Origin: an uncultured Gammaproteobacteria bacterium | GTDB taxonomy: Bacteria > Patescibacteriota > Patescibacteriia > JACPHY01 | Direction: 5' to 3' | Length of the DNA stretch: 64,000 nt | Assembly (NCBI GenBank): GCA_964585225.1 | Contig: CAZPCZ010000001.1 | Span: 6,018 to 70,017 of the forward strand | Shown: positions 3,556 through 33,195 of the stretch, one piece after another | How positions within the stretch are numbered: position 1 is the stretch's first letter | How the letters are laid out: every line of letters begins with the position of its first letter | Translations under genes and position numbers: made by a program | Notes under the pieces: generated by a model | The model's input: only the letters and a program-made list of their open reading frames with translations | Database searches by the model: none | Told to the model about the DNA's origin: nothing

Positions 3556-4083
3556 TCAGCGCTCCTCCACGCTCCACGCGTCCCAATACCGCGCGTCGTA
3601 GCGAACGTCATCGTCCTTCGTCTCCTCCATCGTCGCCGTGGAGAAGTACATGACCGTCGCGTCGGTACTCAGTGACATCGCACCGTTCGCATAGCCGGGA
3701 GGAATGTAGAGCACGGCGGGTTTCTTCGCGGACATCGTGTACCGATACACCTTCGCGTTGCGGTCCGGCTTCACCCAGTCGCCAACGATGGGCACCGCAC
3801 CGACGAGTGCCACACCCGCGACGACGAGGACATATTTCGCCTCACGCCGGTGCGCGTGCCACGCGCGAATGAACCCCTGCCGATGGTTCTGCAAAAAGTA
3901 AAACCGTTTCACGCCCTGAAACGTGAACCCGTTCACGTACCCCACCTCTCCCCGATCATCGACCCCAAGGCCACCGCCCTCGAGGAATGTCGGCTCGGTG
4001 TAGGGGGGAAGCTGGTCGCGTGTCGCGGTCAATCCGAGGTTCGCGGACGCGGGGAGTGTACGCATAGCATCATTGGTGTCCAT
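3556..4083 (-). CDS. RmlC-like cupin, putative NDP-sugar 3,4-ketoisomerase / epimerase (FdtA/WxcM-like)
   Basis: ORF 3556..4095 (the 4095 start is GTG). The cupin core reads RAWHAHRREAKYVLVV...LYIPPGYANG...YFS. Start is ambiguous between GTG 4095, ATG 4083 and ATG 4065. The N-terminus overlaps the tail of the downstream epimerase ORF, which was extended by a palindromic element. Confidence 0.6.
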   Translation of the reverse strand: MDTNDAMRTLPASANLGLTATRDQLPPYTEPTFLEGGGLGVDDRGEVGYVNGFTFQGVKRFYFLQNHRQGFIRAWHAHRREAKYVLVVAGVALVGAVPIVGDWVKPDRNAKVYRYTMSAKKPAVLYIPPGYANGAMSLSTDATVMYFSTATMEETKDDDVRYDARYWDAWSVEER

Positions 4084-5110
4084 CGGCAAACCCACGAGAT
4101 TTGCTCCCCACCCCCACGTTCTCCCCCTCCCCTCTCAGATGGGAGGGGGAGTGAGAGGGGGAGAGGAACGCCTGTGATAATGGGTGTACCTTCAGGAAGG
4201 CCTCATTACTGTACCGCGGGCTCCGGGCATCCTTCAAACGCCCACTCGCGACGAGATCGCGGATCTGCTGGATGCCGTCGTCGAGCGTGTAGCGGGGCTG
4301 GAATCCGAGCTCGCGGCGCGCGCGGGTGCTGTCGAGCCGGACATCTCCGGTTGCCGATCGGTCCGCGGGCCGGACGTCCACGCGTGTTGACGGAATATGT
4401 CGCTGGACGCGTGCGGCGAGGTCAATAATCCGCTCATTTTCGGTGCAGAGGTTGAATGGACCCGTCACCGACGTCGCGACGTGATCGGCCATCACCTTCG
4501 CAACATCGCGAACGTAACAGAATCCACGGAACTGTTGCCCACCGTGAACGGTGAGGACGCCATCCGTGCACGCGTGCATGGCGAAAAGATTTGGGACAAG
4601 ATCGAATCGCGGACGACTCATGGAGTCCGCAAGGCCGAAGAGTGTCGCGAGACGCACGACGAGCGCGCGCCCAGCGAGATGGCGCTCGGCCGCCACTTTC
4701 GTTTCCTGATACAACGTCTGCGGATGGAGCGGCGCATCTTCCGTGAGCACGCCGTCGCTCACGCCGTACGCGAGTGATGTGGACGGGAAGATGATGCGAC
4801 CGTCGTACGAACGCGCGAGCCATGCGAGCGATTGCGCATTGAGCGCCACCGCGAGCTCCGGATACAACGCACACGCACCATCTGCGACGAGCGCCGCGAG
4901 CCAGATGACCGCGTCCGCCCATGCGAGATGTGCACGGAGCCGGTCGCGGTCTCGGATGTCACCACGCACAAACGCATGCGGCTTCCGATACTCCTCCTCC
5001 CAGAGGAGACAGTCGTAGACACGAACCTCATGACCAGCCTCCGCGAGGAGGTCGGTCACCGCGCTCCCAACGTATCCCGCACCACCGACGACGAGGACGC
5101 GTTGAATCAT
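4070..5110 (-). CDS. NAD-dependent sugar epimerase/dehydratase (SDR), paralog of 30471..31460
   Basis: VLVVGGAGYVGS Rossmann motif. Blockwise similarity to the 30471 gene (VYD.LL.EE.YRK, WADAV.WLAALV.D.ACAL). C-terminal tail ...SPSHSPSHLRGEGENVGVG is encoded by palindromic element copy (a) and is about 19 aa longer than the paralog. Confidence 0.85.
   Translation of the reverse strand: MIQRVLVVGGAGYVGSAVTDLLAEAGHEVRVYDCLLWEEEYRKPHAFVRGDIRDRDRLRAHLAWADAVIWLAALVADGACALYPELAVALNAQSLAWLARSYDGRIIFPSTSLAYGVSDGVLTEDAPLHPQTLYQETKVAAERHLAGRALVVRLATLFGLADSMSRPRFDLVPNLFAMHACTDGVLTVHGGQQFRGFCYVRDVAKVMADHVATSVTGPFNLCTENERIIDLAARVQRHIPSTRVDVRPADRSATGDVRLDSTRARRELGFQPRYTLDDGIQQIRDLVASGRLKDARSPRYSNEAFLKVHPLSQAFLSPSHSPSHLRGEGENVGVGSKSRGFADGHQ
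4119..4166. repeat. GC-rich palindromic element copy (a), in-frame within the 3' end of the epimerase ORF
   Basis: ttctccccctcccctctcagatgggagggggagtgagagggggagagg. Arms are CTCCCCCTCCC / GGGAGGGGGAG. Confidence 0.7.
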
Positions 5111-10651: not shown

Positions 10652-11905
10652 TCACGCAGGAACGACGAGCGTCGGCGCCCTAACGAGCAAGCGTTCGAGG
10701 TGATCAATACACAATCGTTTCCCGTAGTGTGCTGCCGCGTACGCACGGCCCGCAGCACCGAGCACTGGGAGCCGCGCGCGTTCTGCGTAGAGCTTCCGTA
10801 CGAGCTGTTCTGCGGTATCGAGATCATCGGACCGGCACGCATACCCGCATCGTGTATCCCGCATGATGCTGAACCCGTCATTCCCGTCGTTTAAGAGCGC
10901 GAGCACCGGAATGCCAGCCGCAAGGAATCCGGTGCACTTCCCCGGCACCATAGAAGTCGTGTACGTCGCCTTGAGACAGAGGAGGCCTACATCGAATTCC
11001 TTCACGAGCGCGGGATACTCGGAGGGATCCACAAAATCCTCAAACTGGACGTTCGCGATGCGCTCATCGCGCGCGCGTTGCTGCATGCGCGCTTTCTCCG
11101 TGCCATCACCCACCAAGAGGAACCGAACGTCGCGGAAATCGGCGACGCGCTTTGCGAGATCGAGCACCACGTCGAGTGACTGTGCCGGTCCGAGAATGCC
11201 AGGGAACCCGATGACGAACTTCCCATCGAGACCATGGCGACGTCGGAAACGACCTTCCGGACGTACCGCATCCCATGCATCGAGGTCAATCCAGTTCGAG
11301 ACAACGGTGACTTTCTCGGTGGCCACACCCTTCCGCTCGATGAGGAATCGCCGACTCCCCTCCGTGTGCGTCGTGATCGCATCGGCGCTCGCGTACGCGT
11401 GACGTTCCATGCGCTCGAAGTATGCGATGATCGCACGGTTCCGCATGATGCCGAGATCAATCGCGTTCTGCGGGAAGATGTCCTGGACGTTCAGGAGGTG
11501 GCGGCAGCCATGCTCGCGTGCGATCGCTTGCCCAACTAGTGCGAGCGGCAGCGGAGAGACGTACGAAACGACTGCAGCGACGCGCTCACGGACGTGCTCG
11601 CGGTACGCACGGAGGTACCGTCGTGGGAGGTCGAGGTGCGCGATGCCGCGGAGGAGATACGCAATCCCATGCGCCGGAAGCGTACGAATGCGGATGACGC
11701 GCACGCCGTTCTCCACCATCACCGGCTCGAAGTGCCGCGCACGCGCATCTGCGGAGAGATGATACCGCGGCCACGGCGCGAGCACTGTGACTCGGTGCCC
11801 GCGCGCAACGAGCTCCTCCGCGAGCTCGCGGAGCATGATCGATATCGAACGGACCTCGGGAGGGTAGCAGATGGCGACGAGCACTATGTGCATACCTACG
11901 GCCAT
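10652..11905 (-). CDS. Glycosyltransferase family 4 (GT-B)
   Basis: 417 aa with GT4 N- and C-domain pattern (...FVGRL-like VGDG...E.FG...EAMA-like region). Alternative ATG at 11893. Confidence 0.8.
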   Translation of the reverse strand: MAVGMHIVLVAICYPPEVRSISIMLRELAEELVARGHRVTVLAPWPRYHLSADARARHFEPVMVENGVRVIRIRTLPAHGIAYLLRGIAHLDLPRRYLRAYREHVRERVAAVVSYVSPLPLALVGQAIAREHGCRHLLNVQDIFPQNAIDLGIMRNRAIIAYFERMERHAYASADAITTHTEGSRRFLIERKGVATEKVTVVSNWIDLDAWDAVRPEGRFRRRHGLDGKFVIGFPGILGPAQSLDVVLDLAKRVADFRDVRFLLVGDGTEKARMQQRARDERIANVQFEDFVDPSEYPALVKEFDVGLLCLKATYTTSMVPGKCTGFLAAGIPVLALLNDGNDGFSIMRDTRCGYACRSDDLDTAEQLVRKLYAERARLPVLGAAGRAYAAAHYGKRLCIDHLERLLVRAPTLVVPA

Positions 11906-11917
11906 TGTTCCATTGCT

Positions 11918-13048
11918 TCATTGCTTCATTGCTACCGACTCGCGGACTCGCTCGAATACCTCGAGGAGGCCGCGGGCGGTGCGATCCCAGGTGAATTCCT
12001 GAACGCGCTTGGTGCCGGTGGCGACGAGACGTTCTCGGAGTGGGGCATCGTTGAGAAGTTGTAGGATTGCGCGCGCGATGTCTTCCGGATCTCGTGGTGC
12101 GAAGTATACTGCGGCGTCGCCACAGAGCTCGGGCATCGGCGGGGTGTTCGATGCCACAATGGGAACCCCGCACGCCATCGCTTCGAGGAGTGTGTGCGGG
12201 CAGGATTCGAGCATGGAGGGGAACACGAACGCGGTCGCACTCCGCATGAGCGCGTGAAGCTCGTCCTGCCGGACGAGGCCGAGGAAACGGATGCGATCAC
12301 TCACGCCCAAGGCGGCGATGCGCGCACGGACGCGATCGACATACCGCTGATCGTGCACGCCGCCCGCAAACCACAGTGGTGGCGTGTCCGGCTGTTTCGC
12401 GACGAGCCGTGCGAACCCCTCCACAAGCGCGAGCTGATTCGCGTACGCGACGAACTTGCTCGCCGTCAGAAAGTACGGATGCGCTGACACCTGACACCTG
12501 ACACCTGACACCTGACCAATCGGATTACCATTGTAGACCACTGAACTCTTTCCAGCAGCGTCCGGAAATCGCTCGACAACCTCATCGCGGACCGCGTGGG
12601 ACACCGCGACGACCGCGTCGGCGCGCGTGATGGATCGTTTCGTGAGCTCCCACTTCATCCGAGATTGTACGTCGAGCATCCACGCGTTCCCAAACTCACG
12701 ATAGCGGAACGGCTCCATGTTCCGGATCGCGATCACCTGCGGACACGGCGCCCGGAATACCGCGATGTTCTTCGCGGTGTAGAGGAGATCCATGCGATGC
12801 CGACGGAGCTCCGTGGGAAGTACGAGCTGCTCGTAGCGGAACCGTTCGAGCGCGCTCGTCTGCGGTCGCACCACTTCATGGAATACGATGTTCGGTCGTT
12901 GAAGGCCGGCTATGAGCGGATGTTGTTCCGGAACGAAGCAGTGGTACTCGTTCGGTGTGTCGACATCCGCAAGTGCCGGAAGAAGATTCCGGAAGTACGT
13001 CGCACCACCATACCCGAGACCAGAGAGGAGCGTCAGGGCAATTCTCAT
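11918..13048 (-). CDS. Glycosyltransferase family 4 containing a heptanucleotide tandem repeat
   Basis: Start MRIALTLLSGLGYGG has an ATGA overlap with the AsnB stop. C-terminal GT4 motifs (FVFPS..ES.P..LLEAMACGVPIV). Carries the CTGACAC x4.7 repeat, which encodes QVSGVRCQVS. Confidence 0.8.
   Translation of the reverse strand: MRIALTLLSGLGYGGATYFRNLLPALADVDTPNEYHCFVPEQHPLIAGLQRPNIVFHEVVRPQTSALERFRYEQLVLPTELRRHRMDLLYTAKNIAVFRAPCPQVIAIRNMEPFRYREFGNAWMLDVQSRMKWELTKRSITRADAVVAVSHAVRDEVVERFPDAAGKSSVVYNGNPIGQVSGVRCQVSAHPYFLTASKFVAYANQLALVEGFARLVAKQPDTPPLWFAGGVHDQRYVDRVRARIAALGVSDRIRFLGLVRQDELHALMRSATAFVFPSMLESCPHTLLEAMACGVPIVASNTPPMPELCGDAAVYFAPRDPEDIARAILQLLNDAPLRERLVATGTKRVQEFTWDRTARGLLEVFERVRESVAMKQ
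12484..12516. repeat. Heptanucleotide simple sequence repeat (CTGACAC)x4 plus partial, inside a GT4 coding sequence
   Basis: ctgacacctgacacctgacacctgacacctgac. The unit is not a multiple of 3, so gain or loss of a unit shifts the frame. Confidence 0.9.
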
Positions 13049-14931: not shown

Positions 14932-14979
14932 AGGCGCTACGCGCGTTGAAGAACGGAGAGCAGAAGAACGGAGAAATTT

Positions 14980-18915: not shown

Positions 18916-20172
18916 TTATGCGACAGCTGCTTGCGCGGGGGTCGCCACCGTGTGCGGCCGCACTACTGGAACCGGCAACCCGTCCTCACCGTACGAACGT
19001 CCGACCCAGTAGTGGGAGAGCTCTGGCGCGTGCATGCGGAAGCCGGGACCCGATCCATCATCGGTCTCATCAAGCCGCCGGAGAAGATCCGCGACGATGC
19101 GCTCGGAGGCCTTGCCGTCGCCCATGGGATTCGGCCACGTCTTCCCGTAGAGCGCCTCGAATTTTGCGAGGACGAACTCGGGCGGATACTTCGCCGGCTC
19201 CGCAGGATCGAACTTCACGCTCGAGCCAACGTCGTACGTCTGCGGGCGTTCGGTCGCCTTCCGCATCTGGAGGGACGGCACCTGGAGCACGCACGTCTCC
19301 TCGACGACCGTACCAGAATCCGTGATGACGCCGCGCGAGTTCACCATGAGCGCAACGAACTCGAAGTATCCGATGGGGTCCACCATGATGACGTTCTTCG
19401 GGAGCGTAAGCCCGTACTCCTGGAGCACCTTCTGCGTGCGGTAGCTCGCGGGGAAGTACACCGTCCGATCCGTGTGTCCGATGAGCTTCAGAATCGCCTC
19501 GAAGGATGAGCGGATGTGCACGTTCTCGCGCCGATGGCACGTCATGAGGTAGTACTCCCCCCTCGTGACACCACGAGGCGCGAAGAACGCCGGCGTTGCG
19601 AGCGCATCGAACTGCGCTTTCCGATCGAAGTAGTACGTCTGGAGAATCTCCACGATTGGATTGCCGTACGTGACGACGATGCTCTTTGGATTGAGCCCGC
19701 CGACCATCCCCTGGAGCTTGTACTCCGGGAAGTACGTGTAGATGACATCGGACATCTGGTCAATGAGGCGTCGGTACTTATCCTCCGGCATGCGCCAATC
19801 GTACGAATGCCAGCACCCCTCGAAATGCACGATCGGAATGTTGAGCTGGCACGCGGCAATGCACCCGACGATCGTATTCGTATCTCCGAGGAACATGACC
19901 GCATCGGGCTTGAGATCCTGGAGCACGGGCGAGAGCTTCTGGATCATCGCGCCCGCGATCTCTGCATCGGTCGTACCGGACACGCCGAGCTCGAGGTCGG
20001 GCTTCGCCACGCCGAGCTCGCGGAAGAAAATGTCCTTCAAGTTGTCCGAGTAGTGCTGTCCGGACCAGATGAACGTAATGCGATGCTTCCGCTGGGCGCG
20101 GAGCGCGTTCAAGACGAGCGATGCGCGGATGACATCTGGACGGATACCGAGCACGATTGCGAGGTGAGCCAT
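18916..20172 (-). CDS. UDP-N-acetylglucosamine 2-epimerase (WecB/NeuC family)
   Basis: Start MAHLAIVLGIRPDVIR. The ORF-track start at 20199 carries a 9-aa extension. Typical epimerase_2 pattern (GDTNT..., HFEGC-like HVEAG region, MVDPIGY). About 50 aa extra C-terminal tail. Confidence 0.85.
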   Translation of the reverse strand: MAHLAIVLGIRPDVIRASLVLNALRAQRKHRITFIWSGQHYSDNLKDIFFRELGVAKPDLELGVSGTTDAEIAGAMIQKLSPVLQDLKPDAVMFLGDTNTIVGCIAACQLNIPIVHFEGCWHSYDWRMPEDKYRRLIDQMSDVIYTYFPEYKLQGMVGGLNPKSIVVTYGNPIVEILQTYYFDRKAQFDALATPAFFAPRGVTRGEYYLMTCHRRENVHIRSSFEAILKLIGHTDRTVYFPASYRTQKVLQEYGLTLPKNVIMVDPIGYFEFVALMVNSRGVITDSGTVVEETCVLQVPSLQMRKATERPQTYDVGSSVKFDPAEPAKYPPEFVLAKFEALYGKTWPNPMGDGKASERIVADLLRRLDETDDGSGPGFRMHAPELSHYWVGRSYGEDGLPVPVVRPHTVATPAQAAVA

Positions 20173-20215
20173 AGCAAAGCTGCGAGCTGAGAGCTGCAAG
20201 CTACAAGCGAGATTG
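20173..20215 (-). promoter_or_regulatory. Conserved 5' leader motif copy 1, immediately upstream of the WecB-like ATG
   Basis: Minus strand reads CAATCTCGCTTGTAGCTTGCAGCTCTCAGCTCGCAGCTTTGCT-ATG. 33 of 38 positions are identical to the motif at 30423-30462. Confidence 0.5.
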
Positions 20216-31461: not shown

Positions 31462-33195
31462 CTACGTCGACGCACGGACAACCTCTCCATCATTCGCAAC
31501 GCGCGCCGCAGCGTACGTCAGCGCGAGCGCACTCCAAAACCACGGGTGGACCCAAAGGTACACGGTCTGGTGGTAGAGGACGAGCGCCAGGAAGAGCGGG
31601 AAGAGCACGACGATGGGAAGGACCACGCGACTACGCCGCGTCCTCCAAAGCGCAGCGAGTCCACGAACCATCACCACCACGAGGAGTCCGGCAATCGCAA
31701 TGAGGCCGAGCGCGCCGGTCTCGGCCCACGCGTTCATAAAGATATTGAAGATGCCCTTATCCATGTCTCCAGCCGGAACCTCTTCGTCGACGAAAATACG
31801 AGCTTTCAAGTGACGAGCCGCTGCAGCGCTCTGCGCCTCGCGCCGAACCTGTTCAGCAAATGTATCGAATATCCGCTTATCTTTCAGCTGCCCCGCACCG
31901 ATACCGGTCAACGGATACGTTCGGCCCACCACCCACCCGACGGCGATGCCGCGCCTCCGTATACTGAACGAACTCTCGACGCGTGATGGCACCCAATTCA
32001 GCCGCGCGAGGTTCTGATTGGTGTAGAACGGATCCACTGGTGGAACCGTCGGGGGAGGGGGAGGTGGAACCGTCGGGGGAGGGGGAGGGGGCGATGCAGA
32101 AGATATCGTCACCGGAACGCGCTCCGAAGTCGCGCGGGCGGTCGACGGTGATGCCGCTTCGGGAACAAACGCGCGCAGGAATGATGCGAGGGCCACCACA
32201 CGATCCTCCTGCGCAACGAGGCCCGCAGCGATCGCGTCTCCGGTCACTGGAGATGGAGGACGATCGGCAACTGTGAGGGCGTATGTGGTGCGCCACGACA
32301 GCAACGTACGCGCGGTGTTCTGAATCTCAATGAGATTGTACCGATACCAGGAGACGACGAAGAACATGCCGAGGAGGAGCACCGCCCTCCATCGTTGCGT
32401 ACGAATCGTCGTGAGCATGAGAAGGCAGAGGAATGTGAGCAGCACGATCTGTCCAACTTTCACGAATGCAAAGAACACGAGCTGGGTCCAGAGCGCGAGG
32501 ATGACGAACAGCACAATACTCACCCACCGATGACGTTGCTCCCGCACGAAGAGGTACACGAGTCCAGCGCCAAAAAAAATGAGGGCGTAAGCAAGGACGT
32601 GCACGGTGGACCTCCCGATGAACTCGGTTATCTCGAGTAACCAGGACTGTCCGGGAGACGCATAACTATGGGAAAGGAACTTCGAGTACGTCACTGTAAT
32701 GATCGCGAGGCACGAGATCCCCATTGCGCTCAATACCGAACGGATGAGCCGATCCGACCGAAGGACGTTCACGAGGAGGAAGACGAGGAAGCTGTACCGC
32801 GCAACGGCGATGCCGACTTGGAGCAGCAACGCACGATCGCTCGCGATGGGGAATGCGATGAACTGCGCGACGGCGTTCAGGAGGAGCAGCGCGTAGAGGA
32901 TGGGGGCGTGGATGATGCGAAGACGGCGCGTCGCGAGCGCATGCATCGTGAAGAGGATCACGAGGAGCAACGCGAGCTCGGTATATTTCACCGACGTTCC
33001 GAATACCGGCAACCGTCCCGGGAGCGGGATGCCGAACGCATTGAACGGGAGCAGTACGAAGTATACAAGGGTGCTCACGTGCAGCCAGCGATACTCGCGA
33101 TCATTGAACACCTCCTGAATATCATGGAACACCATCGCCCCCGCGCGATGGACGCTCTCCCATACGATTCCAATGATTCGTTGCGGGGCAGTCAT
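31462..33195 (-). CDS. O-antigen ligase / Wzy_C-family membrane protein with a proline-rich periplasmic insert
   Basis: 577 aa with at least 10 TM segments. GIGAGQ...IFNIFMNAWAETGALGLIA resembles the Wzy_C GxGxG...HN..LE..E.G signature. Internal PPPPPPTVPPPPPPTVPP from a 24-nt tandem duplication. Confidence 0.7.
   Translation of the reverse strand: MTAPQRIIGIVWESVHRAGAMVFHDIQEVFNDREYRWLHVSTLVYFVLLPFNAFGIPLPGRLPVFGTSVKYTELALLLVILFTMHALATRRLRIIHAPILYALLLLNAVAQFIAFPIASDRALLLQVGIAVARYSFLVFLLVNVLRSDRLIRSVLSAMGISCLAIITVTYSKFLSHSYASPGQSWLLEITEFIGRSTVHVLAYALIFFGAGLVYLFVREQRHRWVSIVLFVILALWTQLVFFAFVKVGQIVLLTFLCLLMLTTIRTQRWRAVLLLGMFFVVSWYRYNLIEIQNTARTLLSWRTTYALTVADRPPSPVTGDAIAAGLVAQEDRVVALASFLRAFVPEAASPSTARATSERVPVTISSASPPPPPPTVPPPPPPTVPPVDPFYTNQNLARLNWVPSRVESSFSIRRRGIAVGWVVGRTYPLTGIGAGQLKDKRIFDTFAEQVRREAQSAAAARHLKARIFVDEEVPAGDMDKGIFNIFMNAWAETGALGLIAIAGLLVVVMVRGLAALWRTRRSRVVLPIVVLFPLFLALVLYHQTVYLWVHPWFWSALALTYAAARVANDGEVVRAST
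32041..32088. repeat. Perfect 24-nt tandem duplication (gtggaaccgtcgggggagggggag x2) inside the ligase-like CDS
   Basis: Encodes PPPPPPTV x2. The plus-strand GGGGGAGGGGGAG resembles one arm of the palindromic element family. Confidence 0.85.

Follow-up and report, generated by a model that had tools for sequence, protein, structure and literature searches.

Contingency loci that control lipooligosaccharide, capsule and glycosylation rest on short repeats, such as the poly-G tracts of Campylobacter and the tetranucleotide repeats of the lic and lgt loci of Haemophilus influenzae. To our knowledge, nearly all known cases of short-repeat phase variation are from cultured, host-associated pathogens. 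A 7-nucleotide (nt) unit is used by pglE of Neisseria, a glycosyltransferase gene that varies in phase via intragenic CAAACAA repeats (PMC7157529, PMC1976384); the repeat lies early in the open reading frame (ORF) and numbers 15 copies in the cited gonococcal strain (PMC1976384). Heptanucleotide repeats are also found in the promoters of hmw1A and hmw2A of H. influenzae, at 13-38 copies, and H. influenzae PittAA carries an intragenic (AATTTTG)14 tract associated with a frameshift (PMC2651432). In the survey of that species, a minimum of three units served as a detection threshold only (PMC2651432). Coding sequences generally suppress repeats at mid-protein positions (PMC3315296). The subject here is a heptanucleotide microsatellite inside a GT4 glycosyltransferase gene, GT4-1, in a 64-kb stretch of contig CAZPCZ010000001.1 from an uncultivated bacterium of groundwater type (the window, meaning the whole stretch analysed). 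The microsatellite is real and maintained, and the chances appear evenly balanced that it acts as a low-copy contingency ON/OFF switch of a surface-glycan GT4 enzyme.

Tandem Repeats Finder (TRF) and direct reading agree with the first-pass annotation of this DNA, which had reported 4.7 copies of CTGACAC within a GT4 gene (Table 1). TRF returns period 7, 4.7 copies, 100% matches and a score of 66, the top result among the short-period arrays of the window; a higher score is reached only by a 24-nt array at 32039-32088. The gene-strand reading is GGTCAG(GTGTCAG)x4CG, which in codon register gives four CAGGTGT units followed by CAG, that is, four full units and about five in register. A two-unit probe produces three overlapping matches, all at the tract, against 0.04 expected, and three were reached in none of 100 shuffles. 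When the whole 64 kb was scanned by lag for arrays of at least four copies, period 7 or 8 and at least 80% identity, only 11900-11936, 12480-12521 and 20178-20208 were recovered (two at lag 7, one at lag 8), while 30 codon-block shuffles gave none. All three arrays fall within a glycan gene cluster. A genome-wide 7-nt mutational signature was also considered, prompted by 7-nt quasi-repeats seen in spacers of the operon; it is unsupported within the window, where the arrays of the lag scan are confined to that cluster.

It is the DNA, not the peptide, that is maintained at the tract. Rare codons are used in it (AGG 0.023, TCA 0.11), the observed periodicity was reached by none of 100,000 synonymous recodings of the tract peptide, and the encoded peptides differ among lineages. 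Selection at the level of the peptide was rejected on the same three results.

The tract recurs unchanged in four independently assembled contigs (L001-L004; samples: three JGI, one ENA) whose identity to the window is 99.9-100% across 1.7-5.8 kb. Next to no credence is therefore due to an artefact of assembly or sequencing, or to a chance repeat without significance. What speaks for this reading is only the general trouble of short-read assemblers with repeats, but the 33 nt of the tract are well under read length, the chance expectation is about zero and homologous repeats exist in six other lineages. Contigs L002, L003 and L004 (1.7-1.8 kb) end at near-identical points on either side of the GT4 gene, ~300 nt upstream and 300-380 nt downstream; strain heterogeneity in the neighbouring genes or low coverage may account for these shared ends.

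GT4-1 encodes 376 amino acids (aa; protein P0001), and an ATG..TGA overlap with the stop of the upstream AsnB-like gene supports its start at 13048. Its Pfam matches are Glycos_transf_1 (PF00534, 1.2e-31, 110 bits against a cutoff of 26.4), PF13692 (95 bits) and Glyco_transf_4 (PF13439, 7.9e-12, 46 bits against a cutoff of 28.5). A PDB profile search with GT4-1 returned solved GT4 enzymes, down to 1e-20. All matches to NCBIfam equivalogs lay far under cutoff, the best being TIGR04047 with 111 bits against 260. The C-terminal domain holds an EX7E motif, E281-x7-E289, both glutamates of which are invariant in an alignment of 18 orthologs (A1). Domain matches, this motif and a two-domain predicted model together assign GT4-1 to the retaining GT4 enzymes with a predicted GT-B fold. 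The AlphaFold2 model (18 orthologs) has a mean predicted local distance difference test score (pLDDT) of 89.8 and a predicted template modelling score of 0.87, and its alternation of strands and helices on either side of residues 171-192 fits two Rossmann-like domains.

The repeat encodes the linker that joins these two predicted domains. The tract peptide, G178-QVSGVRCQVS-A189, stands just past the invariant Y172-N173-G174, and in the model the linker follows the final strand (168-170) of the N-terminal domain and precedes the opening strand (193-196) of the C-terminal domain. The repeat-encoded residues 180-187 are the sole segment of the model with pLDDT below 50. Translation, alignment and model thus bear out the earlier statement that the tract encodes QVSGVRCQVS in an inter-motif loop. 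Alignment to homologs, suggested at that time as a check on whether the ten residues are an insertion, revealed a loop that is hypervariable in sequence and in length (15-47 aa) and of one length in seven close lineages.

The expectation that a one-unit change of this non-triplet repeat truncates the enzyme also held in silico. Three units yield a product of 191 aa and five units one of 252 aa, with residues 193-376, including E281 and E289, lost in both. Two or six units are likewise out of frame, and one or seven units, which are three-unit changes, are in frame. In every frameshifted product of the window gene, the C-terminal domain and with it the EX7E motif are missing. In the proposed mechanism, the four full units of the assembled state would keep the gene in frame and ON. 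If slipped-strand events added or removed one or two units, the frame would shift directly behind the acceptor-side domain and the EX7E donor-binding domain would be lost, giving an OFF state, and a second slip would restore ON.

Related lineages show what has happened to the tract over longer times. DNA was compared for the nine closest orthologs (67-75% amino-acid identity), two of which, L007 and L017, have an insertion in the linker; the seven insertion-free lineages are the window, L005, L006, L016, L032, L033 and L034. In all seven, the loop from YNG(N/T) to ASKFV spans 87 nt and contains about five 7-nt units, whose start codon and register are shared. The units belong to four families, CAGGTGT, YAGCCGA, CAAGCYG and YCCGTCT. 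CAGGTGT is repeated four times in the window, recurs in L005 with one mismatch and is present in L006 in decayed form with a compensated indel. YAGCCGA is the unit of L016, CAAGCYG that of L032 and YCCGTCT that of L034, and L033 has a decayed CMAGCNN. Period 7 is called independently by TRF in L005, L016, L032 and L034. Lag 7 is the top periodicity of the loop in each of the seven lineages (0.71-1.0 over the best 28 nt) and exceeds that of every other 39-nt segment of the same genes. The first-pass annotation had held that a peptide conserved in relatives under different nucleotide encoding would indicate a non-repeat origin; the comparison came out for a repeat origin, as the relatives keep a 7-nt DNA repeat. 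More distantly, an AAAATCC repeat of its own (TRF, 6.7 copies) occupies the orthologous loop of the low-GC ortholog L020, at 53% identity, and the other distant orthologs have no repeat there.

The frame hazard is shared as well. Single-unit slips in L005, L016, L032 and L034 likewise remove the C-terminal domain in silico. In L016, whose unit is TAGCCGA, C replaces the initial T in just those two units whose TAG would otherwise be in frame, and every single-unit slip runs into a stop inside the tract. To judge from its sequence, the L016 ORF is kept open against its own repeat, in-frame stops having apparently been edited out.

Outside the loop, nucleotide identity between these genes is 0.69-0.76 and third-position identity 0.46-0.58, which is near saturation. 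Units within a genome share a mean identity of 0.75 (0.71-1.0 for the best four units), against a mean of 0.39 for in-register units of different families. Simple decay from a shared perfect ancestor predicts about equal identity within and between, so the units have been homogenised within lineages, which is concerted evolution. This points indirectly to repeated slippage or conversion at the tract on evolutionary time scales.

L005 and L033 are sisters in the gene tree (neighbour-joining, 95% bootstrap), yet L005 has the unit of the window and L033 that of L032. The tracts of the window and L005 differ at one of 33 repeat positions (31 of 35 matching over the five-unit register), and the adjacent flanks are 0.70-0.76 identical. 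L033 resembles L005 upstream of the tract (0.85) and L032 from the tract onward (0.71 and 0.84); between L005 and L033, nucleotide identity is 0.82-0.94 over codons ~80-150 and 0.33-0.57 at the tract. Such mosaic genes suggest that co-occurring relatives have recombined, with a breakpoint in the repeat or close to it; recombination is a simpler account of the unit common to L005 and the window than convergence. A convergent origin of CAGGTGT in these two lineages was set aside on this ground.

The linker accepts other sequence too. In L007 (2170-2310) and L017 (2550-2714), a palindromic element with inverted ends GTCATTGCGAGCG...CGCTCGCAATGAC sits in frame in the linker and adds ~16-26 aa. Its end sequence is found outside the GT4 gene in L009 (2453-2465), and the insert is probably a dispersed miniature element. 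An origin of the tract from this element was considered; the likeness of the element ends GTCATTGCGAG...CTCGCAATGAC to the tract unit is limited to a GT flank. In-frame palindromic insertions in the linker are present in P0008, P0009 and P0033, and element-like inserts in P0033 and P0039; inserts of similar kind are also carried by homologs that are more distant.

Much of this comparison bears on a neutral origin of the tract, the main rival reading, to which we give slightly less than an even chance. Under this explanation, a chance tandem duplication in a permissive linker, free of sequence constraint and only loosely constrained in length, was fixed in the ancestor of the clade, occasional conversion among misaligned units keeps the period and frameshifting slips, which inactivate a needed gene, are purged, so that the microsatellite is a tolerated liability with no adaptive switching. 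The linker itself favours it, being the only disordered segment of the model, variable in length among homologs and open to in-frame palindromic inserts, and so do the decay of the tract in L006 and L033, its mid-protein position, unlike that of tuned phase-variable repeats (PMC3315296), and the constancy in length and lack of OFF products described below for a tract of only 4-5 units. Against it, strong periodicity is kept in five of the seven lineages though third codon positions are near saturation, and the unit identities differ within and between genomes where pure decay predicts them to be equal. The near-identity of the window and L005 tracts amid diverged flanks, the further 7-8-nt repeats in the same operon and the independent 7-nt repeat in the loop of L020 also fit it poorly.

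The near-identical tracts of the window and L005 could also be taken as conservation for a role unrelated to mutability, such as a protein-binding array, an antisense promoter, an mRNA structure or a required repeated peptide. The repeated plus-strand CTGACA does resemble a -35 hexamer. We nevertheless consider a role of this kind improbable. Four unrelated unit families mean that no specific motif or peptide is conserved, and a specific binding motif is unlikely for the same reason; the tract peptide is predicted to be disordered and uses rare codons. A consensus scan found no promoter-like or terminator-like site at the tract, and its RNA folds no better than shuffled sequence (z = -0.49). 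The window as a whole has no match to Rfam families and no tRNAs. An RNA or DNA function of the tract was rejected on these results.

What defines a phase-variable switch is variation in unit number. The first-pass annotation had proposed a contingency locus for surface glycan; the architecture fits this, and unit-number variation was not found in the evidence on variants, which consists of consensus assemblies with roughly one contig per lineage. A non-triplet intragenic repeat beyond chance is present and a one-unit change abolishes the product in silico, both hallmarks of contingency loci, and retention of the repeat at the orthologous site with units evolving in concert is supportive without being defining. 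Polymorphic unit number, a further hallmark, is not seen in the consensus assemblies.

Several results weigh against a switch. All five near-identical assemblies of the strain have four units, and all seven lineages are in frame with one loop length, none having two or eight units; the suggested check against other isolates, made here on assemblies, returned a uniform unit number. Fourteen distinct predicted variant products, 12 of them frameshifted (the window gene at 0, 1, 2, 3, 5, 6 and 7 units together with the plus and minus slips of L005, L016, L032 and L034), gave no match among ~15 billion proteins in an exact-protein look-up, which by its construction favours the ON state. The homology search yielded no truncated fragment of 67% identity or higher. 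The tract has 4.7 units at codon 178 of 376, against 13-38 units (hmw) or 15 (pglE) in validated switches, and with only 4-5 units the switching rate would probably be low. Since coding sequences suppress mid-protein repeats, its persistence is notable, yet the position is atypical for tuned phase-variable genes. Homogenisation could also proceed by length-neutral conversion, without OFF intermediates. The linker tolerates almost any sequence, and the decayed tracts of L006 and L033 together with the palindromic inserts of L007 and L017 indicate that it is highly permissive and the tract dispensable. Scanning JGI metagenome contigs with a protein pattern gave 17 loci, of which just one contig belonged to the same strain and none was a frameshifted copy, and a scan of GTDB genomes gave eight, with L007 the sole member of the close clade. 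Neither scan added a further copy of the strain.

As a contingency switch, the locus would have the following history. A slippage-prone tract would have been inherited from the ancestor of a small Uhrbacteria-like clade of the candidate phyla radiation (CPR). The homogenisation of its units would stem from recurrent slippage through OFF intermediates, and switching would be frequent enough to matter, for example by varying the surface glycan that phages or host cells encounter.

Table 1. Coordinates of the repeats and glycosyltransferase genes in the window.
Feature	Coordinates	Strand	Description and basis
GT4-1, GT4 glycosyltransferase carrying the repeat	11918..13048	(-)	376 aa; Pfam PF00534, PF13692, PF13439
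Heptanucleotide microsatellite	12484..12516	(-)	Plus strand CTGACAC x4 + CTGAC; TRF and direct reading
Codons G178-A189, interdomain linker	12482..12517	(-)	GQVSGVRCQVSA; translation, AlphaFold2
GT4-2, second GT4 gene, WcaI-like, last of cluster, downstream of GT4-1	10652..11893	(-)	Pfam Glyco_trans_4_4, Glyco_transf_4
8-nt repeat x4	11902..11933	(-)	Gene strand AGCAATGA AGCAATGA AGCAATGG AACAATGG; TRF period 8, 4.0 copies, 91%
Imperfect 7-nt repeat x4.6	20177..20208	(-)	Gene strand GCTYKCA; TRF period 7, 4.6 copies, 80%; lag-7 scan 17/21

GT4-1 is the second-to-last gene of the surface-glycan cluster, which is one-directional, at least 20 kb long and runs from ~31.5 kb to 10.6 kb. The cluster encodes a GDP-mannose 4,6-dehydratase, several epimerase/reductases, GT2 enzymes, a PMT_2 membrane transferase, a UDP-N-acetylglucosamine (UDP-GlcNAc) 2-epimerase, FkbM-type and C-methyltransferases, a DUF2079 protein, an AsnB-like amidotransferase and the two GT4 enzymes. 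GT4-2 matches the NCBIfam WcaI family at 2e-42, under the family cutoff, and its synteny is kept in L001, L005, L006 and L032-L034. A premature stop in GT4-1 could affect GT4-2. Genome bins of Candidatus Uhrbacteria and Peregrinibacteria supply the closest named homologs, and synteny is conserved with an Uhrbacteria bin, so the host is probably a high-GC member of the CPR.

The 8-nt repeat lies at the junction of the two GT4 genes. It covers the last codons and the TGA stop of GT4-1 and extends to an ATG at 11905 that lies 12 nt upstream of the called GT4-2 start (11893). The lag-8 scan matches at 22 of 24 positions here, against a null of 0, and every contig of the strain has the identical repeat. 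ATG(A/G) is part of each unit, and with one unit fewer the stop of GT4-1 would be read through. Relatives have an AT-rich stretch here, in the variable tail at the C terminus of GT4-1 and the spacer that precedes GT4-2, with a 7-nt quasi-periodicity over ~55-60 nt; quasi-repeats occupy this junction in L006 (7120-7150, ATTAGAA x4.4), L032 (6153-6184, GTTTAGA x4.6) and L033 (3155-3181, TGATTCC x3.9). L006 has a further array in the methyltransferase/AsnB spacer (4078-4101, ATTTGAA x3.4). These junction and spacer quasi-repeats could be translation-initiation or expression-tuning elements. In the methyltransferase/AsnB-like spacer of the window (14932-14979), the 12-nt direct repeat TCTCCGTTCTTC occurs twice; the spacer is pyrimidine-rich and has no obvious Shine-Dalgarno sequence.

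The imperfect 7-nt repeat, which reads GCTTGTA GCTTGCA GCTCTCA GCTCGCA GCT on the gene strand, is part of a 94-nt leader. It is situated just downstream of a promoter-like TTGACA-17-TGCAAT site and immediately precedes the start codon, ATG at 20172, of the gene for UDP-GlcNAc 2-epimerase (18916-20172; Pfam Epimerase_2, 5.8e-67). Its unit is a rotation of CAAGCTG, the unit of the GT4 tract in L032. The higher-scoring array at 32039-32088 is a perfect 24-nt direct repeat of 2.1 copies (GGTGGAACCGTCGGGGGAGGGGGA, TRF score 100) overlapping a G-rich hexamer array, inside or beside a 577-aa ORF (31462-33195) without Pfam match.

Taken together, the linker tract and the repeats at gene junctions allow a broader, tentative proposal, which we think somewhat more likely to fail than to hold. 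They may be the first recognisable family of contingency loci in the CPR (Patescibacteria). Here, a GT4 linker switch would be kept mutable by concerted evolution across species-level lineages and joined by 7-8-nt repeats at operon gene junctions, so that very small, probably episymbiotic cells could stochastically alter a surface glycan of methylated deoxy-sugar in the face of phages or hosts. Among the top-ranked results of a literature search there was no report of repeat-based phase variation in the CPR, and none of the 12 papers ranked highest mentions the CPR. If the GT4-1 tract is a switch, repeat-based glycan switching would extend to ultra-small environmental CPR symbionts, and the locus would offer a concrete target for the study of surface variation. 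Should the tract prove stable instead, the case would show that metagenome scans going by repeat architecture alone over-predict phase variation. The comparative pattern offers a clean natural case of concerted evolution of a frameshift-prone coding repeat, in which site and period stay constant while four unit sequences replace one another.

The 7-nt unit, which the first-pass annotation had called unusual, is uncommon for a switch but not new, given the precedent of pglE; the hmw genes of H. influenzae use heptanucleotide repeats as well. pglE is the closest precedent. Like GT4-1, it has a 7-nt unit in a glycosyltransferase ORF concerned with surface decoration, a frameshift upon change of unit number, predicted for GT4-1, that turns it OFF, and a place in a glycan module with other repeat-bearing genes. 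The pglE tract, however, is early, long and variable between isolates, and its switching is demonstrated, whereas here 4-5 units stand at codon 178 and no variation is seen; pglE is compared by description only, and the present host is an uncultivated CPR-type bacterium. With the hmw system the locus would share heptanucleotide repeats that mediate variable expression of a surface component, in one case intragenically with a frameshift. It differs in that the hmw repeats mostly lie in promoters and grade transcription, reach far higher copy numbers and serve adhesins rather than glycosyltransferases. The homopolymer and tetranucleotide loci resemble it in the concentration of several short repeats in a surface-glycan cluster and in their frameshift on/off logic, but have units of 1-4 nt, long tracts, documented variability both among and inside strains, and host-associated pathogens as carriers. 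Ordinary coding microsatellites offer the remaining comparison. They too occupy unstructured, insertion-tolerant loops and encode peptides without an evident role, but they are normally triplet-based, so that slippage is tolerated, and a 7-nt unit kept at one site in lineages near synonymous saturation is not usual among them.

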